Assembly (NCBI GenBank): GCA_036172245.1
Contig: JAYWIR010000025.1
Span: forward strand, 992,001-1,056,000
DNA length: 64,000 nucleotides
Source of the DNA: Raillietiella orientalis
Taxonomy: Eukaryota
Direction of reading: 5' to 3'
Below, piece by piece: positions 4,801 to 64,000 of the stretch. The notes under the pieces are model-generated. The model was not told the origin of the DNA and made no database searches. It saw only the letters and a program-made list of their open reading frames with translations. The first letter of the stretch is position 1. Each line of letters begins with the position of its first letter. A program made the translations under genes and the position numbers.

Positions 4801-7800
4801 CGCCGAATTTTCCTCAAGAAAGGTTACATCTACTCGAGAGTATTCTCATTTTTCTCAGACCTAGAGGCATTATCGTTCTTTTCATCAGTTTTTGTGTTGA
4901 GGATACCGTGGGCGCGCCTGCTACCAGATGCAACCGTCCTGCTCCTGCTTTCACTGCATTCATCCGTCTTACAAGAAAATTTTCTCCAGAACATTCGGGA
5001 CGCCTCCACACCCGACCTGCGCCATTGCCAGTATCCGTTCCCTGGGGGGAAGCCCGATCTGTTGGATTCTGCGCCCGGATCCGACTATGACCTACTCCTC
5101 GATAGCACAACTCTGCTGGGAGCCTCTTCCGAGTGATCGGAAAGGCTCGAAAAGTTTCGCGTGGAGGAAGTGTCCCTAGAGCTCCCCCCACCCTTTCAAG
5201 TTCTCTTCCATTCGGAAACGGCTCCATACCCCTCTTCGGTTTCCTCTGTATCTTCGCACTCTAGGACATGAGTCCATGAACGAAGATGCAAACGCTTTTG
5301 GAACGAGAAGCGGGTAATCCGGCTCTGGCGGTAAACTTTTCGAATCCCTGGAGCAGTCTTACCGTCAGGTTCAGTTCAGGGAATCCGAATTTTTCGTACT
5401 GATCGATGATGCACTGGGCTTTTTCCTTGAAGGTCTTCTCTGCGTCCGAGGTCCACCAGTCATACAAGTTGCCCAGTTTGTCATATTGCCTTCCCTGAAA
5501 ATCCGGAAGCAGGAGCGAAATCAGTTTCTGGATCCTTCGATCCTCTTGCGAAGGCATACCATGTCGTCGAATCCATGGGTGATCTCATGCCCCATGATTA
5601 CTCCAATGGATCCATAGTTGAGGGATTTGGTACTCCGAGCTTGGAAGAATGTTCCCTGAAGGATGGCGGCGGGAAACTCTGCAGGAAAACCACATCAAGG
5701 AGAGCAGAAATCCCACTTTGCTTACGGATGCTGTTTTCTTGCGGCTTGTAGTAAGCGTTGACGGTTATAGAATCCGAGTACTCTTTCCAGTCTCGCCTGT
5801 CCTTTTTCTCCCTCAGCGTCTGTATGCTTTGCTTCCTTTGGAACATGTTGATTCTCATGTTGTTTTCGAAGTAGCCTTTGGGGCTCAGTTGCAGCTGCGC
5901 GAATCAGTGTGGGGTGAATGCGGAAGGCAACTTACATCTTTGTAGTATCCGTTAATAAGGAAAGAGTTGGTCAGTTCGTCGGGAAATGCCATGTGAGAGT
6001 CCATCGCTTCCAGTTTCTCCAGCGCGTGCCTCCTGAAGATTTCGAAACAGATGGAACAAAAAAAGCAGTGGTGGTGTGGCCGCTCGCAACTTTGCAGTCA
6101 CCATGCCGTCTCCCGATGGAGCCCAAAGCAGCCAGAATTTTCGGATCCTGGAAGCCGCGACTCCTCTTTCGCAAACCGATTAGGGCGTCGGGGATCGCGG
6201 AGAAGAAGTTGGACTTTACTTTGGAGGTGATAAATCTCTCGAAAGGTTCAAAGCAAAACGTGGCAGCGAACAGGCTACCTCTCTTGGATCCGGGTCTCAT
6301 TTTCTTCTTACACGTCCTCCAGCACCCAGAAACACGGAAAAAAACTCCCACACAGAAGTCTACTACGACTGTATACCTCTATGAGTTGATGAGAAAACCC
6401 GATAGAAATGTACGGAGTAGCGGCTGGTTTCGCTACTGATATCCCCGTTCTCCGTATCCGTGGAAACAACAGGGTGAAAATTTGATTGCATGCGTGGGCG
6501 CTTGGAGCTCAGAATTTGGGGAAACCTTGACCTTAAACAAGTTCATCGAAATTTAAAGAAGAATCTGGCAAATGAAACATTTAATTCCTGACTGAAGCAT
6601 ACTTGTCAGGAGAAGAGAAAGCTCGGAAGTTCTTAAGGAGAACTGCAGACAAGCTGCCGAATAGGTGGAGACTGCGTCTCGAAACAGAAATTTGAAACCG
6701 TGGTCATCGAAGTGGCGCCATTTGAAAATAGAACCAGAGTGCAATGGGCCTCCAGATGAGAGTGAAAAATCGAAGGTCGTGGGTACGGGAAGAGATGCGA
6801 GCGACGTAGAATCGAGCCGAAGGATTAAGGCACAAGAAGGTGATATCGGTTTCCCAACTGCACTGCTGACTCATTCAGAGGAGGTTATTTCCTCAGAAAA
6901 TATGAGTCCACTTTTTTCAAGGGAAAACTCTACAAGACTTCGCGTTCCTTTCCGGTTTTCTGAGGGTTTGCGGTTCTTCGGCAAACGCACCTTTTCCGTA
7001 AAGTTTGGTCCAAACGAGAGCCAGAAGGGATCGTGAAAGTCCAGCGGAGTGTGACCTTGGAACTTTTACTTTCGGAAGTCAGACAGGAACGAGGGGAAAA
7101 GGTTGCATCTAGCACTGAATAAGACTCGTTGTGTGTGGATATAGTAAAGAAAAACCTTATGATGCTCTTGGACAAAATGACCAGCAGGGATCTGGCAGCA
7201 AGGCGGGCATTCCCAAGTATATCACTCCCGCAAGCGCTGAAAATGCAGCCGATGAAGCGCATTAAAATTCAAGGTACACAGGAGTTAAAGGAGGTCATAC
7301 AGAGCCAGTGCTTGAGTCATTCAGCTTTCTGGAGCCTGCAACAAAAGAACGCTGCCGCAAGCCGACTATCGAAAATTGCAGCTGTAGCTTTGAAAGAAAA
7401 CCGGACCATAGCTCTTTCGAGAAAACTGTTTGGGATGTAAAAAAAAAAAAAAAACAGTTCCTCGTTTAAGTGCGTCCTGTCGGAGGAACTCAGTCTTGAA
7501 AAGGCATTCCTATAACGAGCCTCATCAGACTTGACGTTTCTACCTGTCGAATGCTCGGCGGAGAATCGCTTGGTTTCCTAAAAGACACTCAGTTGAGCAC
7601 TGGCTACCCTACGCATATTCCAGCTGCTGTGACTACGTGATGAATCCTGTCAAGAAAATCATTTTGCTTTTCGGATTTCGATTTCTATGTGCTTGAGAAC
7701 AGGAGAAAGTTGGAAGTGAGATGCGAATTTGGTGTCTTGGGAGGGGAGTGTGCATTCTTGTTGCAGTAAAGAGGCACGAGGGCGGAAATAAAGCACCAAT

Positions 7801-10800: not shown

Positions 10801-13800
10801 CAGTTCCCCTCCTTCAATAGAGGCGTTTCGCACTTTACCTTCGCCAGACTCATCTCCAGCTGCAGGACCTCGTCCATTTCTTTCCGAGCCACTTCACTGT
10901 TGGCATTGAAGAGCGTTGCGACATCGATCATCAGTCTACTGTAAGCTTGCATCTGCTCGTCTTTCAGTCCTCTTTCGAAGTATTCGAGATTCATCCCAAG
11001 GTTCAGCTGATCTATCTGGAAGCAGATGAGCCCAAGTTTCGACGTCCGTGTCAAGAGTCATGTCTGAAATTTGCAGTACGTTTATTATCCTCCAGGAAGA
11101 GTTTCGCGGATCCGGTCTCACGTATAGGTTCCACAGCACGTTCATACTCATTCCGAAATCATGCAGCTTGTACAGTACTTCGAGCCAGTTGGTCTGGAAA
11201 CTGTTTCCGTGCTTCTCTGAGACAGGCCAGCCGCCCATGCTCCTGAGGTAGGTTTCCATCTGACGCAAACCAATGCTTTCCAGCTGATCTAGATCAAAAT
11301 AGGAAAGAAATCTCAGCGAGATCCTCTCTCGAGCAGTCAAGACCCAACAAGCGAACCCGGGAAGCAAGGTGCAGAAATGGAACCTCCTCCGCTCGCGGAT
11401 GTGCGGAATGTGTGAGCACCCGGACAAGTCATTCAATGCTGACCAAAGATGACTTCGGTTACGCGCAGTGAATCAAACTGCGAAGTCTGCAGCCTCCCCA
11501 TTGTCATGCCTCGAGGATTCGAGTTTTCTAGATCCATTTAGGGAAACTACATTGCTTTCAGCAATCGCTCTCGCATGCCAGCCGACCAGCTGACCAAGGA
11601 GAAATTAGAGCACGGAGCAATCGTATCGGCAGAAGCATTACAGCTTCCTCCGCCATTCGAACTCTGCAATCCAAGAACGGATCTTCATCTTGAGCAAGAG
11701 TTCCCAGTTAGTCCTCTAAATCATCAGGTGGTGGTTTGCTAAAATTGAATTCGGTTGCCCACGGTAACCTGCATTCCTTCTCATAAACGCGGCTGACTCG
11801 GCGTACCACTGTCGAAGCTGCTCCTGGAGCACATGAAAATTTCAGTGAGGAACCGTAAACGCACTAGGAATTCGTTCCGTGGGGAGTCCCGAAAATACAT
11901 GGAGTCCAATTCACTTTGCTTGCGCCTCTTTCTGCTGGAAGCACCATCCTGATTGGCAGCTCTTGATGGAAAATCAGCTTAAGAATTGAGAAAGACATAT
12001 GGCTATGCACAGATGTGATGATGCTCCACTCGCGAGAGTGACGAAGGCAGTCGATAAATTCATATCTGATATCGCACGCTCCGTAAGCGTTCCTTTTTCT
12101 CTCTTTCTCACTTCATTCGGTGAGAAGCCTTCCTTCTTCACTCTGCTTCAATCTGGGAAATCTTTCATTCTCTGTACCCCAAACTACGTTTCCCTTGCAT
12201 CTTCTAGAACGAACTCGACGGAGATCAGAAAGCGGGAATGCTCGGTCCTTCTTGTCACGGATGCACGGAAGTCCCCTTCGGATACCATCCAGAAGTTCCG
12301 CCTTTTATCACACGAGTAAAGCATAAATTGATGCGAAGCTCTGAAACGTCATGTTTTTGCTGGCCACAGTCACTTCACACCTCGGAGAAGCAAAGATACC
12401 AAGCTCAGAACACAGAACACAACATGCAGTGGTCCTGTGCATGATTCTCTTTCGCCAAGCAACTGACCGAATGAAGTAGCCCTATCGGTAATCTTCCTGC
12501 GAGAATTCTGTATGACGCGCTCATAGGGAAAATCCGTGTATGAAGAGCTCTGTGATGGGTGGAAGTGCGCTGTGGTTCGAAGAAGCCAGAATTTATCTCT
12601 TGAGTAACATAGGCTCCATCGTCACGATCTAACGGAAAGAAGGTAAGGGAGTCGCTTTAAACTTAGCTCGGTGAGGATCGGAAAAAACCTATCTCGGTCC
12701 CCTCACTGAGAGGCTGTTCCGTATCCGTTCGGACTGGGAACGCTCGACGAAAACCGCTCTTCTCTCAACAGGCGAGCGTTCCTTAGACCGAGCCAAAGAA
12801 GTCGCCGGAAACTCGCGCTACCATTTTGTGCAAAAGGAGCAGCGGAACAGCTCCTCTTCCGACGGAACTAAGTCGACAGCGGCCATCCCTGTGCTAAGAA
12901 GAGCAGAGAGGTGGTCTTCCAACGAAGGAGGATGCCACTGCATCATGCAAGGACTGAGGACCAAGAGGACCGATGCACATCGTTTCTTTCTATCCTCCGT
13001 CACTCCAGATCTCCGCAAATGGTGCGCACGCAAGAGACAGTCTCAGAACTCATTCTCGATTCGTACCCGTATCCAATAAAGACGAGGAAACCTTCATTAC
13101 TGGAATTGGCTGGCCGCGGAAGCCAAGAAGCAAATTTGTCGGTAGTTTGTCCACAGTGGCTCACTTATTTATCCGATCGAATTCCAGTTCCTCTCTGAAG
13201 TGGAGCATCGTGATCGAAAAGACACCCTTCTTTCCGCGTCAAATGTTCCGTCATTTTGACGACGTGGGTGCTTTCCTTCGCACTTCCTTCGCGAGTCCGA
13301 CTTGATAGCCGGCAGCGAAAGTGCCGGGTAGAGTGTTCCCGGAAGCTTGCAAAAATCGATGCTCGGATAGACGATCCAACCCCTGCTTCCCTGCTCACCT
13401 GTCCAGGGGAAGCAGCCCGAAACGTCCCCACGACATTCAGGGGAGAGAAAACGAGCTCTTCCTCCTCCCGAGAAGACTGAATGGACGCGCAAGCCCCATT
13501 CCAGATGAGCCACATGCACTTCGGTGAACACACGTTTCTCACTCTGATGCACCAGCAGAGTGCGCTCCTGTCCTAGATGCATCGCTACATCACCTCCGGC
13601 ACGTCTGTTGCAGCCCTCCATCCCCTCCCCTCCCCGGGAAGCCAAAAGCGCATTCATTCAAGAAGATCCTGGTTTCCTTGCCCTCTGAGGTGCGCAGCAT
13701 GGAATGATGGAGGCGCCAAGCCACCTGGTTTCCTGTTTTCACTTCACCGCTTATCGTAGGTGCTCAGTGAACGCTTTTATGAAGACCATTCTACTTATTT

Positions 13801-14655
13801 GATCGTTTTAAGGTTCCTCACAGTTCGAGGCCTCACAAGAACTCTCTTTGTTCCAATGTACATGGGACGTACATGGGACGTCCCCATGACGCCTGTTGCA
13901 AAGGTTAGGTTAGGTGAGGTGAGGTTAGGTTAGATTGAGTTAGGGTAGGGTAGGGTAGGAACGCAGGTCTCCTTGAAGGTACAGGCCTTTTTCCTGCAGA
14001 GGGCTTTCTTGCTGCTCATCGACATTCCTTTCTCTCATGGAATGGAATGGCAACTCTTTGAGGCGTTGCTAGAAAAGCTCGCAACGTGGATCTTGACAGG
14101 GAACACTTTCTCAAAGCGTCCGGCTCACCCAAACGGGCCGGAGAAGGCATCTGGATTCCTTCCCCCCTTCTCAACAAGCACCATGAAATCAAAACAAAAA
14201 ATCGGATGCGCCCACCCGCCTCTCTTTCGAATGGTTCCGAACGGTCCTCCAGAACGTCCTTGTTCCGAGGAGATCTGACAGCGTTCCCTCAGGAAGTCCC
14301 CAAATGATGCCGAAATCGACGCCGTTCGCTTTCGAGCACGAAATTTCCTCTCCGCTCCATTGGTAGGCATCCTCTCGCGCAGCGCTGACGTGCATTTCTG
14401 TGTACTCACCGACATCCATGCAGCTGCTGTAGAATGACTTCAAGATCTTGACGAAATGAGGGTCGTTGTCAGCAACAGGCTCTTCAACCAGAGCATTCAG
14501 CTGGACATCCACTTCGTCCATCAGCAAGCTGAACTGGCTCACGACTGCCTTGTTTTCCGGTATCTTCGTTTCCTTCACGAACTTTCCGCAAGCGAAGGAG
14601 TAGAAGTCCTTGCAAGGAGAGACGTCCACGTCTATGTTGTTGATGATCCTGGCGG
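1880..14655 (-). CDS. Neprilysin / M13 family zinc metallopeptidase, multi-exon; the 5' TM-coding exon was not located
   Basis: Phase-consistent GT-AG exons on the minus strand: 14655-14410, 11288-11080, 11015-10839, 10781-10564, 10509-10351, 10297-10154, 6032-5936, 5894-5726, 5678-5560, 5494-5363, 2221-1880. Motifs: [39 protein letters not shown] (HExxH), [16 protein letters not shown]-terminal CEVW*. Confidence 0.95.
9600..10000 (-). mobile_element. Decayed LINE C-terminal zinc-finger (zf-RVT-like) remnant in a neprilysin intron
   Basis: '[22 protein letters not shown]' resembles the C..ET..HLF..CP....IW motif of LINE ORF2. Confidence 0.35.
12900..13320 (+). mobile_element. Decayed reverse transcriptase remnant in a neprilysin intron
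   Basis: '[11 protein letters not shown] ... [15 protein letters not shown]' resembles the RT G-x-P-L-S and (Y/F)xDD motifs. Confidence 0.3.
13902..13959 (+). repeat. Degenerate (TTAGG)n-like pentamer array
   Basis: aggttaggttaggtgaggtgaggttaggttagattgagttagggtagggtagggtagg, about 11 units; preceded by a tandem gtacatgggac x2. Confidence 0.8.
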
Positions 14656-16579
14656 CTGGAAACGAAACATTCAAGAAGCTGCTGCTTCTTGGAAGCTGCA
14701 ACCACCCTTGCGTTGGCACGGAAGAGGTGGCTGTAGTTTGTTGTCACCCTCGGGGAGGGCAGCCAGCAGTCGGTAACCGAGACAGTGGAGCCAGAAAGCG
14801 CCGTCCCGAGCGCCGTCGCTTACCGATCCAAGCTCCCCCCCCCTTCCGTCCTCCTCAGCGCCTGCGCTTTCGAGCGAGTCCAGCGTCGTCTGAAGCGACA
14901 GAGTCCTCTGGAGACTTTCCCTTTGGAGGATTCGAAGGAAGCGGAGAGAATTCCTTCCCGGATGCGCGTACTTGCCTAAAGTCACACAGAGAGAGGGACG
15001 TGCAACCTCTGGCTTCCGGAAAGCGAGAGTCGGGGCGAAGACCCTGCCCACGAGATGGGCAGGAAATGGTAAGGACAGAGGGGGTGGAACTGGAGGGAGA
15101 GGAGACGTCAGTAAAGCGACGGGACGCATCAAACTGGTTCCCCGATAACGCCAGGGGCAGCCGTGAGGAAGCTTTGGTCCAGCGAGGACGAATGCTCAAG
15201 GAGGACGCTGCCTCCTTGACGACGCCCGAAATGTCTTTCCACTCCATCACTCTCAGCAGAGCGGAGGCTGGAAGAATTCAAAATCCACCGACTGCAGCGC
15301 CTTGCTGCAGATCGTTTCCTGAACACCCCCCGTTCCGAGGGGTTTCCCCTGAGGAGTGCCTTAGACGCTCGTCGTCCTCTGGAGAGGAAACTCCGGGAGG
15401 AAAACGGGTGGAGATGAGGGAAGAAGCGGGGGGGCGGGGAGGGACTTTGCCTCCCCCCCCCCCGTCACGCAGCGCGTTCGGTTCCGGTATCCGGAAGAAG
15501 AACGGCGCGAGCGGGAGCTACCGGCTCCCCTCCCTTACCCCTCACTTCCCTTTCCGGAAGAAAAATGCAACCCTACCTGCCAGCGTACATTCCTTCGTAA
15601 AGCAGACCCGGGGTCTCTCTGGTGGCGTAGACTGCTGCGGAAGAAGGTCAACGGAAAGGGCCATCGTCGACCTCCCTGCGTGCGCGGCGGCGCGGGAGAG
15701 CGTCCAGCATCCCTGAAGACACAGAAACCAAAACGCGACCGCACACATGTCCGTTCGCATCGAGAGTGGTGTGGTGACAGGCGGCCGGTCTGGGGAGGGT
15801 CCCGCGCTATAACTCTGTGGTCCGCAGTCCAAGAGGAAGCCTCGAGGGCACGATGGTTTCCTGACCTCTGAACCCGTCTTAGGCATCCGCCTGCAGGCGC
15901 GCGCGAGCAGTCCCACGGCAGGCCTCATGTCTCCGCGCCCAGTGTTTTGGCACCTTGGTTACCCCTCCTCCTCCTCCCTCGCAAGGTCAGAGGACGCAGG
16001 GAAAAGTCACCACCGAGAGGATAGACGGCGGCGCGCCGACCATACGCGTGTGGGAAAAATGGAACATGGAGGAGATCTCGAGGATGATCCATCCGTCTGA
16101 GGGAATGTGATTGGCGCGCGCACGTGCCGTATGCCTCCTTCCCCGCACCTCTTTCGTTCGTTTTCCCTTCCAGTTGCGCCCTTTCCAGGGACTCTGTTGC
16201 CCACTCCGGAGGGGAAGGTGGAGAAAGACTTCAGCAGACGCCAACCCCACGCGCATGCGTGAAGGAGCACTCTTGTGCCCGATGGTGTATCCGGGGTAGC
16301 GCCGGCCCATTGCCGAGAGGCTAACCGTTCTTTCTCCGATCCCCTCCCTGGCGTGATTTCGCGAAACGCCCTATCCGGGCGTACGGCTGCAGCGCGCAAA
16401 CGCACCCCAAGGAAGCCACGAGTGCCTCTTCCCCCCGTTTCCTCCTAGAGGCGTATCTGAAGACTCACACGTGGCGGCTCCGAGGGAGAGCACACCTGGG
16501 GCCCTTTGAGAGAGAGAGAGAGAGAAATAACAGCAACAGCCGCCTGTCACCTCCAGAAAGCGGATTACGAGCAACCCCG

Positions 16580-56474: not shown

Positions 56475-59365
56475 TAGTACTATAAAAAATAACTAACAAA
56501 GAATCTCCTATATTCCCAGGTCCAAGTGGATGAAAACATTGCAGTCTGTGAGGAATCAGTTAAGTTTATGCATGTGGGAGATGAAACATAATCGGGACAA
56601 AGAAGGAAAGATCGATCATGAGGAATTACATCTGCTACCCCTCTCAAGCGAGGTAAGGAGGATCTTAGTATTTTCATGAATTCAATTCATATCGTGGAGT
56701 TCAACTCTAATTTCTTACCTTAGAGTTCATCTGCATTCCTTGCCGTAGAGTCATCATTTTCATAATATCCAAGTGCCACCGTCTGTTTCTCGTCTTTGTT
56801 ACATACTGCGAGAGAACATCTCATGCTTATGGGTGACAGCTAACATTTCTTACCATAGAAACCGCATTTCTTATTCAGGTTCAAACAGAAAAACAAACAG
56901 AACTGCTTCTGGGCTCCACAAATTTATATCTTCATGATCAATCTTCACAATCTTGGATCTGGGCTTATTAATGGGATTGGTCCAAAGCTCTTTGGATTCT
57001 TAGACAACTGATGATGAATCAGTATGCTGATCTGTTCAGATGGTCTCAATATTGATACAGCATAGCGACAATGTTCTTAGCTTCTAAACGGCTAGACTCG
57101 AATGGATCAATCATTTTGTTTTTGCAGAAGAAAATAAAAAAAAAATCCTGTAAGTGGTCTCAGTTGCATTTGGACAATGGGCACTCTTCACTTTACACTT
57201 AAAATGAAAATTTAAAGCCTGATGGATGCAACTGTTTCAGCAACTGTAGCATAATCTGAGATAGATGGCTTCTGATCCTGAAACGCATGAGCACTCGCGT
57301 GTCCCAGCAGCAGGAACGCGGAAGATTAGTAAAGATGTTAAAGACTTTATTGTTGTTGCTTTTGATGCAAAAATGCTAATAACAGCAAACTAATCGCTAA
57401 TCACTCACTATTGAGTGATATTGATCTATCTCGAAGCAGTCATTTTTGCAGGTGCATGAAATAAAAACTAATGATCCATCCATTAAACTTCACTGCTGTG
57501 TCCCGTTGCCTCTTCATATTTTCCATTGCATGAAACTTGACTACAGAGGTGAGCTTGCTTTTCGATATTGTCCTTCGGTATGAGATGCAGTATGTCAGCT
57601 CCTCTATTATAGTCAAGGATCTCGAAATAATGAAGCTAGAGGAGAGAAATCCTACCTAGTTTCCACATCCACTAGCAAATTTGTTACAGCTATACTGTGC
57701 CAAATTGCCAAATGAAATGAGATGCAAATAAAGTCTTAATATCCAGATTAGTTACAGATTTGTTGATGTGCTGGTTCGGATACGTCTCCGTTAACTGTTG
57801 CTCATACTACATTAACTGTGGAGTCCAGCATCAGGCGCACAAAAATTCAAGACGCAGACGTAAAAGATTGGGCTGACGACTTCTGGAAATGATTTCTTCA
57901 TTATCCTTGTATTTGGTGTGTCTCATGTTCGTTTCCTTATACTAATTACTACCACTCCCAAAGCTGTTCTTTAAATCATTTGATTTTAGGAATTTACTCG
58001 ATCTTTAAAGGAGTCTCACTTGCTGATTTCGTCTTTATTTCAGAAACATATCTTTCCTTTATTTTTTACTAGCAATTCAGAAACCTATTTGAATCTCTCC
58101 TAATACAGTTACAGTACTTAGCTATGAATATGGTATACAAAATTTAGCTTAAGGAACAGCCGTTTTTGATTGATAAGATTTGGAAAAGAGCATAAATAAA
58201 TTTTGTAATCGAATGTCAGGTGTCTCCATTGTAAGAATAATCTCATCACAGAGACCACCGAGTATTTTCTAAATGGCGTTGTACAATTTCTTTCAAGTGT
58301 TCATACTGCATCTTAGAAACGAAAAGGACTCCAAGTAATCATGTAGTGTTAACTGGGAAGAAAATGAAAACTTTTCCTTTGAGAGGAAGTCTTCTCCAAA
58401 TTTTTGTAGATCTCATTCCAGAATGTTCTCAACAAATCAATTCACTGAGAACTGTAGACGCGAAACCTTCCCTGTATTCTGATTTCATTTTCTGGTTTTG
58501 TTTCCAGCCAGTTAGTTGAACTCACTCGGTCCTCCGAAGCGTTGAAACATCCTTACATTAATAATCATTATAGCATTGCTTTAGAGCAATACATTTTATG
58601 GAAATTTTCTATTTCCCCTTTCGTCATCGGGTGATAAATGAATCAGTTATTTCATAAAAGTTGTTGAGAACATTTGATTGAGATTTTCAAAGCTGATGTT
58701 AACAGTAAAATGTTTTGACTACTAAATAACCAAAGTATATGGGTCTAAATTCTGCTTGTTACTCTTTCGAAGTATAAATTACAAGAGGACCGTGTTCGTA
58801 TGAAATGAAAGGCAGTAAATGGAGCTATTGAAAATCTTTCCATTCCTCGACTAAACCAGAGCGGTGCTTGAAGTATAGTGTTGGTTGCACAAAAGCTCAA
58901 ATTCCAATATTTCAAAATGTTCTATGAGGGGACAAGAATCTTTAATGTTTCTCCTCATTAAGAGCAATTTCCCCGAATTCAGATTTAGTGATCATCATTA
59001 TGAAGGTTAGGTGACATTGAGAAAAAGCCAAAGAAAATGTTCAAAAACCTTTTATTATAGACTTTCTATTATTTGTTCTCGACTCCAACCCAGAAAATGT
59101 GGTCAAATGAAAATCATTCCTTTCAATACTGTTAAAATTATTCAATACAAGCTTTATATCTTGGTAGTCTTAGTTTTATTTATTTGCAAAGCAGCAATCC
59201 TGATTAGTTTTTCCTCAAATACATGGGTATTCAATAAATAATAAAAAAACAAGTAGTAGTCCATATACAATTATAATCTAGAATTACTTAAATCTGATTT
59301 TAAATGTGTTCGACTTTAATATTTTCAATCTACTTTAGAAGCACTTGAAAACATGAAATGCAAAC

Positions 59366-59387
59366 CCGGAAGTGGAAAGTCGGAAGT
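59366..59387 (+). promoter_or_regulatory. Tandem ETS-type motifs upstream of FARSA
   Basis: CCGGAAGT (59366-59373) and TCGGAAGT (59380-59387), about 200 nt before the ATG; this motif is typical of housekeeping promoters. Confidence 0.5.
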
Positions 59388-59579
59388 TACATATGTTACC
59401 GGCGTGGATTGGTTCATCAGAGATGATGAATGAAACAATGCTAATGAATAGCGAACTAGTTTTGAAAATGGTAGTGCAAACGTAACGTTTCCAGAAATGA
59501 AAGACTACTCATTTTATGTTTCCACTTGAATGTTCAAATTCGTCAGCGGCCCGCCAAAAGTCGTCACAGCAAACATTTA

Positions 59580-61462
59580 ATGAATTCTCAAAACATGATT
59601 GAACTGAGTGATGTGATCCTTAAAACTTTAAGTCAGAAAGACACTGTTAGTTCCCTGGAACTAGCAAACGAATTAAATGTGGATCATCAGAAAATTGTGG
59701 GTGCTATTAAGAGTCTGCAAACTCATCAAAACGTAAGTGAGAATTTCTGCATTTTGTATAACTCATTAAATACAATTTCCTTTTTTTAGCTTTTGGATTG
59801 TGAACAGGTTTGCTCTTTGGAGTGGCATTTGACGGAAGAAGGAAAGGAAATACTACAGAATGGGAGTCATGAAGCACGGTTGTTTGCTAAAATTCCTTCA
59901 GAGGGAATTTCTCAAGCCAATTTGATGGTGAATATATAATTATGAAGCCCACTTGAAATTTGGCACTTCTAAATTTGTAAATTTTTAGAACGAATTTTGT
60001 AATTACAGTGAGTTTTAATTTTTTTTCTCTGTTACAGCAATGTGTTGGAGACAATGCTAAATTAGGTTTCAATAAAGCCATGTCATATGGGTGGATTCAA
60101 ATTAACAAGCATGCTGATGGAGATGTGTGGGTGAATAAGAAAGCAGAAAGCATTCAGGATACCACTCAGAATTTGCTGTCAGCAGTAGATAAGAGGTTAC
60201 CACTAAAAGATAAAGAAAGAAATGAGCTGAAAAGACGCAAGTTAGTTGAAGAAATGTAAGGTGAAGTCATAATTTGAAATTGCTTTTAAATTAATTGATC
60301 GTTAAGACAAGTGAAATACTTCGTTGTATCTAAAGGACCTAGTTTCTCAACAGAAGTGCAAAAACTGGAAACTGAACTAACATCTGATATGATTGCATCT
60401 GGTTCTTGGCAGAAATTGCAGTTTAAAGATTACAATTTTTCTGCAATGGGTGCCTCAGTTTCTCGGGGTTATCTGCATCCCTTACTTAAAATGCGAGATG
60501 AAATAAGAGAAATTTTTATTGAAATGGGGTATGATGCTCAGTGATACATTTTTCATGTTGTCTGGTAGATTTAGTGAAATGGCAACTAATCGCTATGTGG
60601 AAAGTTCCTTTTGGAATTTTGATTCTTTATTTCAACCTCAGCAACACCCAGCTAGGGACTCTCAGGATACATTTTTTGTTTCTGGTAATAATTAATATTT
60701 CAGTATGAAAATTAATGATGTATCAGATCCTGCAGAAGCTCATCTCCCTTTTCCTGATTATGTTGATCGTGTAGCCAGTATGCATAGTAAAGGAGGTCAT
60801 GGATCAGATGGTTATCAAATGCAATGGCAAAAATCAGAGGCATGTCGCAATGTATTGCGTACCCATACCACTGGTGTGAGTGCACGTTGTCTACATGCAC
60901 TGGCCCAACAAGTCAGTAAAGTGGCTAGGGCTTTCTAATGTGCTGTTTAGAATTCTTTCCATCCAGTCAAATGTTTTAGCATTGATAGGGTGTTCCGCAA
61001 TGAAAATTTAGATGCTACACATCTAGCAGAATTCCATCAAGTGGAGGGTATTGTAGCTGATTACAATCTGAGCTTGGCAGATTTATTGGGATTATTGACA
61101 ACATTTTTTGAAAAGTTGGGATTGAAACAGTTACGCTTTAAGCCTACCTACAATCCATACACAGAACCAAGTGCTGAAGTTTATGCATTTCATGAGGGTT
61201 TAGGAAGATGGGTTGAGGTTGGTAATTCAGGAATGTTTCGCCCAGAGATGTTGCATCCTATGGGTTTTTCTGATGATGTGTCAGTGATTGCTTGGGGACT
61301 GTCTTTGGAGAGGTACCTTTTCATTTTTTACAAGTCACATGTAATTTTTTAATCAGGCCAACAATGATCAAGTATGGGATTCAAAACATTCGTGAACTTG
61401 TAGGCCATAAAGTGAACTTGGCAATGGTCATGGACAGTCCCATATGTAGAAGAGATAAGTAA
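59580..61462 (+). CDS. FARSA: Phenylalanyl-tRNA synthetase alpha subunit (cytoplasmic), 499 aa
   Basis: Exons 59580-59732, 59790-59927, 60038-60255, 60307-60528, 60569-60684, 60727-60911, 60951-61312, 61357-61462 total 1500 nt. Motifs: [99 protein letters not shown]. Confidence 0.97.
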
Positions 61463-61497
61463 GTGGAAAAAGAAGTTTTTGTTTGTTATTGCTGCAG
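61459..61497 (+). other. Candidate 39-nt intron containing the FARSA stop codon
   Basis: GTAAGT donor, T-rich tract and TGCAG acceptor; same length as FARSA intron 60912-60950; frame-preserving. Confidence 0.7.
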
Positions 61498-61498
61498 G

Positions 61499-62200
61499 AT
61501 GTTCCATGGTCCTTCCTTGCATGCACAAGCTGAAGAACCTGTGCAAGTAAATTCAATGCTTTCACAAATAGCTGTGATCAGCAATGAGATGGCAAAATGT
61601 CTAATACCAGACACAACACTTGTGGATCTAACAATTGTTGCTTCTCCTCAATGCCCTCCATATTCCTTACCACCTCTGTTAAAAATGCTGCATTCATTGT
61701 ATTCAGTACATTGCACTACATTTGTGCACAGTTCACTGAAGAACTCACCCAAACATCTGAACAATTTTTTGCCAAGCCTTGAAAAATATTGCACAGATAA
61801 AGTTCTCAATGTTAATGTTATTTGGAAGGAAGTCTCTGATATTGAAATCATCACAAGTGCAGAACAACCCACTCTTTATGGAGAAGCTACCATGATACGA
61901 CTTTTAGGAAGAATGGCTCAACAACATGATACTCTAGGCATCAGCATGTCTGTGCAAGTGGATAATTGGATTGATGTTATCTGCAGAGATTTCATATATG
62001 CCTCTGAAGAGGAACGTATGAAACTACTTAACCACATCAGCAACTTGTTTCACAAGGAAAAATACTTGTGCTGTGGCAGGTGGTCTTTGGCTGATCTTTT
62101 TTTGTGGTCTAGTCTCCAGCAAACACAATTAACTCAGAAATTGTCACCTGTGCTGGAGATTTGGAAAAGGAATTGCGAACTGTACATAGAAAAGTTATAG
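61499..62200 (+). CDS. AIMP2: Aminoacyl-tRNA synthetase complex-interacting multifunctional protein 2 (p38/JTV-1), 233 aa, intronless
   Basis: DLTIVASPQCPPYSL..TTFVHSSLK..VNVIWKEV..LYGEATMIRLLGR (thioredoxin-like domain), then VDNWID..YLCCGRWSLADLFLWS (GST-C domain), matching AIMP2 architecture. Confidence 0.88.
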   Translation: MFHGPSLHAQAEEPVQVNSMLSQIAVISNEMAKCLIPDTTLVDLTIVASPQCPPYSLPPLLKMLHSLYSVHCTTFVHSSLKNSPKHLNNFLPSLEKYCTDKVLNVNVIWKEVSDIEIITSAEQPTLYGEATMIRLLGRMAQQHDTLGISMSVQVDNWIDVICRDFIYASEEERMKLLNHISNLFHKEKYLCCGRWSLADLFLWSSLQQTQLTQKLSPVLEIWKRNCELYIEKL

Positions 62201-63555
62201 TTTTACTTTGAAATATAATTTATTGGTGTGGGTAATCCTGCTTCCTGTTGCAAACCAAATTCTATTAAATTGCTAATTTTTGGCCTTAATAGTACTTGTT
62301 TGCAATTTTGGAGGCTGTGAGTGTATGATTACTTCTTAGCTTGTGAATTCAGTTATGAAGTCTGAGTGTAATAGAGTTAATTTATACAAATCAAAGTATG
62401 TTTATAGAGTTACTGGATTAGCAGCATAATTTTGCAGTTGAAATGTGAAGCATGATTTCAATTTTATAAATGCTTCAGCTTAGAAAATGAAAGTGACATA
62501 TCTTTGCCAAAGCATGTTAAGTTATTTGTTGATTGATCTAAATGGTGATTGTAATAAAGCATATGCAAAAGTGTTTTTTAATATTGTGAAGTTTTGGGGT
62601 GGTATACAAAGCTTGGACATCTTCAGTTAATTGGATGTGCATTCATTATCATCAAAGTTCCAGTGCCAAAATCATCATGAAATTAAAACTTTAGTCAAAG
62701 CTATCATAAATGTTTTTGTGATTGCTTACATAATTTATGAATTTTTTCTTTTATTTATTGAAGTTAATGTTATGTCTCCATTTGCTGTCAACACATTTTT
62801 TAAAGGTTTCGAGTACTCGGTAAATGAGTACTTTGTAAATTTGAAATTTTTCAATTTGGATAGTGATGCATGTTACATATCAAGATTTTTATCTATAATC
62901 TGACGTGTTGTCTGGTTGATTTATTGTGCAGTGTGTGATATGTGATTGCCTTATGACCAGCAAACTAATAAAACAAGTTGACTGATTTCAATGTAGGCTT
63001 ATTTTTTTGAGATTTTTGAAACATTCCTTATTGACTGCACTTGTCTTTAGACTCTGTATTTTTAGTGATTTTGTTATAATGAAATAACTCTTTGCTATGT
63101 TTTTAGGACAGAAAATACGTTGAATATCATCAGAAAGTTGAAAAAGATAAAAAAAATCTTAAATTCAACTTTATGACAGAAGAAATCATAAAGCAACATT
63201 TTTATAATATATAACAATGGGAATCGAAGAATAATTTCGTAGAATGATTTCCTTTCATAGAAGTTAGGAGTTCCTTTAAAGCATGTCTGAACTTTTTGTG
63301 TATACATTTTTTTTTTGTCTATTCCTTAGTGCATTAGATTCATGAATTCTTTTTATCATATCCGTGCATTTTTAATAACTAGTAATAAACAACCAAACAT
63401 TCGATAAAAATCCGTTTCTGTGGAAACTATTTTAGAAATTCCTAGGCTCCCCTTTTCACAAAATTATCCATGTCCGCAGAAACCCTGGTTTCACACTTGA
63501 TTCAGCATCCTGGGAAGAATAATCAATGTAGTCCTGATGACTGCCGAGCAGGGGA

Positions 63556-63966
63556 ATGGTTCACATCGACCCGACGTGGAGAAGGAAGCAGGCACTGGTC
63601 AGAAAGCACCAACTCAAAATTGTGCCTAGGAGCAAGAAACTGGCAGATTTCTCATCTATCCTGGTGATCCCCGTCCCTGGGGACACAAGGAGCTGGATCT
63701 ACCAGAGGCCCAGAGTTATCTTCAAGAGAACCGTGCAATGGAGACAGGGAGCCTACTACCACCACTCCCGCATCCTTAGGTACATGGAGATAGTGAGGGG
63801 AAAGTTCATTCACCGGACGCGCGAAGTGTGGAAAAACCACAACTACGCGTGGTCCAGGAAGAACAAGGAAAACCTTCACCTCATACCTGAAGAGGATAAG
63901 GTCATCCATGCCCTCCAGGAAGCTGCCAATCGCTACGGAAGTGACAGTCAACATGTTCGCGATTGA
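63556..63966 (+). CDS. Hypothetical basic protein, 136 aa, single exon
   Basis: ATG-to-TGA ORF with GC3-rich, protein-like composition, sharply distinct from the AT-rich flank. No recognised domain. Confidence 0.45.
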   Translation: MVHIDPTWRRKQALVRKHQLKIVPRSKKLADFSSILVIPVPGDTRSWIYQRPRVIFKRTVQWRQGAYYHHSRILRYMEIVRGKFIHRTREVWKNHNYAWSRKNKENLHLIPEEDKVIHALQEAANRYGSDSQHVRD

Positions 63967-64000
63967 AACGACGCTCAGGAGGAGTGACCTGCCGTCAAAC

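Follow-up and report, generated by a model that had tools for sequence, protein, structure and literature searches.

Do two genes that lie head to tail with only 36 nucleotides (nt) between them give rise to two proteins, or to one? This question is raised by a 64,000-nt stretch of DNA from Raillietiella orientalis (GenBank assembly GCA_036172245.1, contig JAYWIR010000025.1, positions 992,001 to 1,056,000 of the forward strand; hereafter the window, to whose numbering coordinates refer), in which FARSA, the gene for the alpha subunit of cytosolic phenylalanyl-tRNA synthetase (PheRS-alpha), is followed on the same strand by an AIMP2-like open reading frame (ORF). A sequence-only reading had described the pair as a single, operon-like transcription unit. 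Here we show that the single unit is supported, and that the two ORFs very probably form one gene, in which a cis-spliced intron whose donor contains the FARSA stop codon yields a fusion of PheRS-alpha with an AIMP2-like domain.

The 36-nt gap holds by coordinates: the FARSA stop TAA occupies 61460-61462, the spacer 61463-61498, and the AIMP2-like ATG begins at 61499, one base after an AG (61496-61497) to which the sequence-only reading had also drawn attention. What that reading overlooked is that the stop sits within a full-consensus splice donor (AA/GTAAGT, 61457-61464, plus strand, the slash marking the exon-intron boundary), with the first G of the intron at 61459. The spacer plus three bases corresponds to a well-formed 39-nt GT-AG intron of phase 2 (61459-61497, plus strand), which has the donor GTAAGT, 13 T at positions -23 to -4, and a GCAG acceptor. 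Donor, T-rich tract, YAG acceptor and length are all those of a GT-AG intron of this organism: the seven FARSA introns (57, 110, 51, 40, 42, 39 and 44 nt) together span 39-110 nt and carry 8-14 T in the same interval, and only FARSA intron 1 equals the full-consensus donor of the junction. Upon removal of the intron, AA and G would be rejoined as the last lysine codon, the stop would be lost, and the frame would run into the ATG, giving a 732-amino-acid (aa) product with no internal stop; the intron-retained product would be a plain 499-aa PheRS-alpha. The spacer is open and in frame with both ORFs because a 39-nt intron keeps the frame. Since AAGTAAGT occurs once in both strands of the window (128 kb), and only 16 of the 1579 TAA triplets in the window (about 1%) lie within GTAAGT, chance is a poor explanation for the donor-like appearance of the stop.

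The identities given to both genes by the sequence-only reading are borne out. FARSA (59580-61462, plus strand) comprises eight exons (59580-59732, 59790-59927, 60038-60255, 60307-60528, 60569-60684, 60727-60911, 60951-61312 and 61357-61462) in one open frame of 499 aa that matches PF18552 and PF01409, and thus has the N-terminal DBD domains, class IIc catalytic core and intact frame of a cytosolic PheRS alpha subunit. It shares 53-62% identity with 47 homologues, although a quick tree of 48 rows leaves the window sequence on a long branch without placement. Exon 7 has one match in the whole genome; genome searches covered 210 Mb in 491 contigs and were made exon by exon, such that their counts are lower bounds.

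The AIMP2-like exon (61498-62200, plus strand) is intronless and, according to Pfam matches and a structure model, encodes a short helix followed by thioredoxin-like and GST-C subdomains, the combination that defines AIMP2/p38. The ORF from the ATG at 61499 (233 aa, the C-terminal third of the 732-aa fusion) matches PF18569 at 5.7e-17 and the human AIMP2 chain 5a34_B at 9e-16, and a HMMER search with it gave 202 matches. For its predicted structure (mean predicted local distance difference test score, pLDDT, 76.8), AIMP2 chains occupy ranks 1-10 among Protein Data Bank (PDB) entries, with a Foldseek E-value (E) of 4e-12; the ESM Atlas returned only AIMP2-type clusters, all under 0.8, and this serves as a lead at most. 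His77-Ser78 of the tail align with His155-Ser156 of human AIMP2, within the loop His153-Ser156 that binds AspRS (numbering checked against the residues given in the accessible part of PMC6760448), where Ser156 is described as essential for AspRS binding; the His-Ser pair is missing from the Schistocerca tail. The LysRS-binding N-terminal peptide, PF16780, was matched neither in the AIMP2-like ORF nor in an ORF upstream of FARSA. At the place of the leucine zipper, through which AIMP2 binds AIMP1/p43, the predicted model has a short helix (residues 17-32, pLDDT about 46-60), while most other fused tails have longer helices before the GST fold.

Fusions of the same layout occur in other arthropods. 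Longer proteins were searched with exon 7 of FARSA; of the 120 matches listed, 117 reach the C-terminal motif, and eight of these 117 homologues carry a tail of at least 40 aa. When the eight tails were scored with a profile representing 84 ordinary AIMP2 rows, five matched at an independent E-value (iE) of 2e-29 or better, two matched weakly (about 0.01), and one did not match. The tail of a 616-aa FARSA of Abscondita has no match to the profile and was set aside. Fusion models of 693-756 aa are found in five Apis species, Andrena, Xylocopa, Dufourea and six Schistocerca taxa, and partial models in Timema (a stick insect) and Eurytemora (a copepod). The taxon list is a lower bound, as a profile search for longer proteins, with 8000 candidates scored, recovered four fusions. 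An alignment of seven arthropod fusions places the start of every tail directly behind the conserved PheRS end, and none of the seven needs a spacer-like peptide or has a Met at the junction. Andrena and Xylocopa also have a second form of 490 aa that ends at the junction. The 693-aa Apis-type fusion is encoded on 35 contigs, each of at most 2242 nt, and a further fusion, P0079, on ten contigs, each of at most 2359 nt; such short contigs bearing full fusions are probably spliced transcript assemblies. The fusions are also present, without any remark, in public gene models (XP_625147.3, XP_076681145.1 and XP_047110013.1), which are titled only 'phenylalanine--tRNA ligase alpha subunit (isoform X1)'. 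Like the window gene, the Apis, Andrena, Dufourea and Schistocerca models consist of a full PheRS-alpha followed by an AIMP2-like thioredoxin and GST-C tail; unlike in those insects, the switch in the window is a 39-nt intron without space for a second donor, and the helix is shorter. An ordinary, separate AIMP2 was not found in the R. orientalis genome, whereas it is present in other Hymenoptera.

The junction can also be followed at the DNA level. Metagenome contigs scanned with the end of P0079 gave 80 pattern matches, which reduce to 14 loci. In one of these (L005, a 2409-nt transcript-like contig), the FARSA stop again lies inside a donor (AA/GTAACT), at the same position and in the same phase as at the window junction, and the donor is followed by 25 further bases and then by a tail exon beginning with G. 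When 12 deletion lengths from the GT were tried, only 25 nt yielded the 725-aa fusion P0079, letter for letter, and a genomic ORF, P0144, is consistent with a second donor at the tail junction; the L005 animal therefore uses two donors, the stop donor giving the fusion and the later donor keeping the stop. In five other contigs (L006-L010, whose displayed portions encode one and the same peptide), FARSA continues within one exon into the GST-C half; the last few FARSA residues are lost and only the GST-C half is present (e.g. L010, 4001-4360; iE 5e-8). These contigs represent a fixed, shortened fusion with no intron or stop between the halves. The remaining eight loci gave no tail match, and the two that were read (L011 and L013) both end at the usual place.

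What bounds the unit is consistent with a single pre-mRNA. The promoter-like ETS boxes that the sequence-only reading had placed only upstream of FARSA (CCGGAAGT and TCGGAAGT; motif scan, 59366-59387, starting at 59366 and 59380, plus strand) are indeed the only ones in 57000-64000, and they are likely the promoter of the whole unit. Its statement that no AATAAA separates the genes also stands: across 61350-62553 none precedes 62553, and from the FARSA stop to 61497 there is neither AATAAA nor ATTAAA. An AGTAAA lies at 61546 and an ATTAAA at 62264; the latter and the AATAAA at 62553 are putative poly(A) signals of the unit (62264-62558, plus strand). One promoter would thus drive a pre-mRNA that starts near 59400 and ends past 62200. 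Removal of intron 61459-61497 would delete the stop and produce the 732-aa PheRS-alpha with a C-terminal AIMP2-type GST fold; if the intron were retained, translation would halt inside the donor, giving the 499-aa PheRS-alpha from an mRNA whose 3' end is long. Because few splice signals of the gene are as strong as those of the junction, and because there is no room for a second donor, the fusion may predominate in R. orientalis.

If the pair were instead an operon, it would be resolved by spliced-leader (SL) trans-splicing at the AG of 61497, with the donor-like stop arising by chance. In nematode and tunicate operons resolved in this way, housekeeping ORFs stand head to tail with a tiny gap and an AG just before the second ATG, and the upstream gene has its poly(A) signal ahead of the trans-splice acceptor. 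The pair shares with SL operons the head-to-tail ORFs, the very short gap and the AG near (here one base before) the second ATG, and has no promoter boxes or AATAAA between the ORFs; furthermore, the AIMP2-like sequence is the sole one found in the genome, which means that the animal may require it in free form, and another short head-to-tail gap lies upstream of the GlnRS gene. Unlike SL operons, however, it has a perfect in-frame cis donor over the upstream stop, an intron of normal length, and no upstream poly(A) signal before the acceptor, while the in-frame fusion is known as a real protein from other species and L005 shares the donor position and phase. A search of the genome for SL RNA genes with Rfam SL1 gave no match, though its control matched nowhere either. 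We consider the operon improbable. Hardly better placed, and if anything slightly worse, is a dicistronic mRNA in which the intron is kept and a free AIMP2-like protein is made, as the main mode, by re-initiation or internal entry at the ATG of 61499. No ATG intervenes between the stop and 61499, which has A at -3, and contigs of about 2410 nt in the L005 animal hold 490-aa and 236-aa ORFs together; against this, L005 has an out-of-frame ATG first, the junction Met is absent from the seven arthropod fusions, and eukaryotic ribosomes re-initiate poorly once they have translated a long ORF. Neither trans-splicing nor a dicistronic mRNA, both put forward by the sequence-only reading as routes to the second protein, is the best reading beside the cis intron, although dicistronic translation, or trans-splicing at the same AG, may be a minor route.

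The sequence-only reading had further proposed splicing from a FARSA 5' donor directly to 61498. The donor exists (GTAACG, 59482): a weak phase-2 donor, it ends an upstream ORF of 30 codons (59393-59485, plus strand) that contains six ATGs in a single frame, and can be joined in frame either to FARSA (AG at 59560 or 59569) or to the AIMP2-like exon (AG at 61497). Taken as the whole explanation, a shared first exon that skips all of FARSA would give the AIMP2-like protein in free form, without any fusion; this agrees with the in-frame join, with the six in-frame ATGs and with the use of a GTAAC-type donor in L005. The upstream peptide has no match to any Pfam family, including the LysRS-binding model of AIMP2, agreement in phase 2 would occur by chance one time in three, acceptors closer by lie at 59546-59569, and the donor at the stop would be left unexplained, which makes such an arrangement very improbable as an alternative, although shared-first-exon splicing could coexist with the fusion as a minor route. 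Stop-codon readthrough, the last of the proposals, is scarcely credible. It would produce the fusion through the spacer, which is open and in frame as had been claimed, but these 12 open codons are expected anyway of a frame-keeping 39-nt intron. Programmed readthrough calls for a leaky stop context and a conserved in-frame spacer peptide; TAA followed by G, as here, is a tight stop, in the homologous fusions the tail attaches directly to the final PheRS residue, with no need for spacer peptide in any of the seven, and L005, the homologue read at the DNA level, makes its fusion by splicing.

Several observations weigh against the cis-spliced fusion, or against its generality. Splicing of 61459-61497 in R. 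orientalis is deduced from its signals and homologues, and the ATG at 61499, with A at -3 and just past the acceptor, would suit a separate AIMP2-like protein; in L005, use of the second donor forms an ATG at the junction, 19 nt past the stop. Of the 117 FARSA homologues, 109 are without a long tail, and the rows from vertebrates, echinoderms, molluscs, spiders and mites are among them. FARSA sequence is carried by only two of the 150 best AIMP2 matches, a set in which fusions may be concealed under FARSA clusters. The fusions from named taxa are gene models, and those of Timema and Eurytemora are partial. In the tail tree described below, the window tail is a long branch within an unstarred group, and the Eurytemora tail is placed among ordinary AIMP2 rows when the tree is left free. 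The ATG past the acceptor, the upstream exon and the junction ATG of L005 would still allow some AIMP2-like protein to be made free, beside the fusion. Direct splicing of FARSA exon 7 to the AIMP2-like exon, which is phase-compatible, was rejected, as all aligned fusions retain exon 8.

Where the tail came from was approached with a tree of 42 rows, chosen out of 152 after a first FastTree of 152 AIMP2 domains had proved unresolved. The window tail groups with six of the seven other fused tails and six of the eight rows without an N-terminus, and this group stands apart from 26 ordinary AIMP2 rows (SH-like approximate likelihood ratio test 91, unstarred). A tree in which all tails are constrained to one clade has a slightly better score than the free tree and passes the approximately unbiased test (p-AU 0.523). 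Sawfly and wasp AIMP2 models form a starred group of their own, so the tail is a second copy in Hymenoptera. Because the 42 rows were picked after the unresolved tree, the tail tree is support, not proof, that the fused tail is a paralog of ordinary AIMP2 in insects.

What would such a tail do? In the accessible parts of PMC4394549 and PMC7470956, the animal multi-synthetase complex is given as comprising nine synthetase activities together with three scaffolds, and its composition in Drosophila is no different; PheRS stands outside the nine listed members of the PMC4394549 review, and the terms 'PheRS' and 'phenylalanyl' are absent from the portion available. Drosophila alpha-PheRS is given with one polypeptide in the part of PMC4826098 consulted. 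The GST domain of AIMP2 pairs with that of GluProRS (PMC6760448 and PMC9136112, in the portions available). The conserved fold and loop suggest that the tail most likely serves for docking on GST partners of the complex: it would attach PheRS to GST-domain partners such as GluProRS, and to AspRS, i.e. to the multi-synthetase complex. The fixed fusion L006-L010, which keeps only the GST-C helices, points to the GST-C half for docking. Given the fusion, we put tethering to the complex at roughly even chances.

The R. orientalis genome offers some of the expected partners. It contains a GluProRS with an N-terminal GST-like domain (L040, contig C22, 493000-502500, minus strand), whose linker shows lysine/glutamate-rich repeats with no WHEP match; the exons of the gene divide the GST domain between them. 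A single EMAPII-type domain (PF01588) was matched, on TyrRS (L028), and no AIMP1-type domain was found. Five probes matched no AIMP2-like sequence in the genome other than the 61498-62200 locus. PF16780 gave four sub-threshold matches, none accompanied by an AIMP2 core in the DNA examined nearby; the best of these, L019 (contig C78, 168696-168806, minus strand; E 0.005, under the cut-off), contains a stop and no ATG and is probably a chance match, and no AIMP2 core lies within 10 kb downstream of it. A loss of ordinary AIMP2 and AIMP1 is thus suggested in this genome, and with neither found, the multi-synthetase complex of R. orientalis may be reduced. More speculatively, and with considerable reservation, one can picture that since early arthropods a splice switch with the stop in its donor has decided whether PheRS-alpha bears a docking domain and enters the complex as a tenth synthetase, and that here, where ordinary AIMP2 and AIMP1 were not found, the fusion is the scaffold of a rebuilt complex while the exon also gives a free protein (by way of the upstream exon or the ATG), such that one locus would make three proteins.

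The fusion can be compared with known systems. Human AIMP2/p38 (PDB 5A34 and 6IY6; PMC4394549 and PMC6760448, each in part) shares with the tail the thioredoxin-like and GST-C fold and the His-Ser pair; unlike it, the tail has no LysRS-binding N-terminus, has a low-confidence helix in place of the zipper, and is fused to a synthetase. C. elegans MetRS-p43, a synthetase fused in cis to a scaffold-type domain (as outlined in the available text of PMC4394549), provides a precedent; there, however, a standard member is joined to an AIMP1-like domain, whereas here PheRS is joined to an AIMP2-like domain that is optional by splicing. Mammalian ThrRS-L (TARSL2) is likewise a non-standard synthetase that a gained extension brings into the complex (PMC6794377, in the part available), but its extension consists of N-terminal leucine zippers on a duplicated gene and was shown experimentally, as opposed to a C-terminal GST fold on the sole FARSA found, with predicted binding. 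No description of a PheRS-alpha-AIMP2 fusion was found in the literature, which was covered mostly at the level of titles and opening lines of abstracts, with subscription journals thinly represented.

The arthropod picture in PMC4394549, as far as its accessible text goes, rests on Drosophila. Since bees, locusts, a stick insect, a copepod and R. orientalis all retain the fusion, assembly of the complex may follow another plan in many arthropods, and one splicing choice could tune the membership of PheRS. An apparent 'animal operon' here becomes a cis-spliced fusion, which is relevant to other tight gene pairs of this genome.

Further observations concern related proteins and the surroundings. 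Some ordinary AIMP2 proteins (P0225 and P0327) bear a C-terminal tRNA-editing domain, PF04073, and represent a second kind of AIMP2 fusion. A cluster of Oikopleura dioica and relatives (P0160, P0042, P0172, P0180 and P0094) has FARSA of 502 aa and of 580-598 aa; the extra 80 residues weakly resemble GST-C or Arc1p-N helices (iE 0.002-0.014). They may have been gained independently, or they may be what is left, beyond the arthropods, of the fusion described here. The GlnRS gene (L039, minus strand) is preceded by an ORF that ends about 40 bases before its first ATG (about 7700-7740), a tight head-to-tail pair; we take this ORF to be nucleotide-sugar-transporter-like. In the 5' region of FARSA, the ORF at 59393-59485 may be a first exon that supplies an N-terminal extension, or a regulatory ORF; it has no Pfam match and no Rfam match, no RNA family of Rfam was matched in 59000-63000, and the region folds no better than shuffled sequences (z 0.27). 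Near the window edge, in more G+C-rich DNA, lies a 141-codon ORF (63541-63966, plus strand) with no Pfam match, and toward the other end, exons at about 10900-14750 (minus strand) resemble one peptidase gene, presumably of the neprilysin type.

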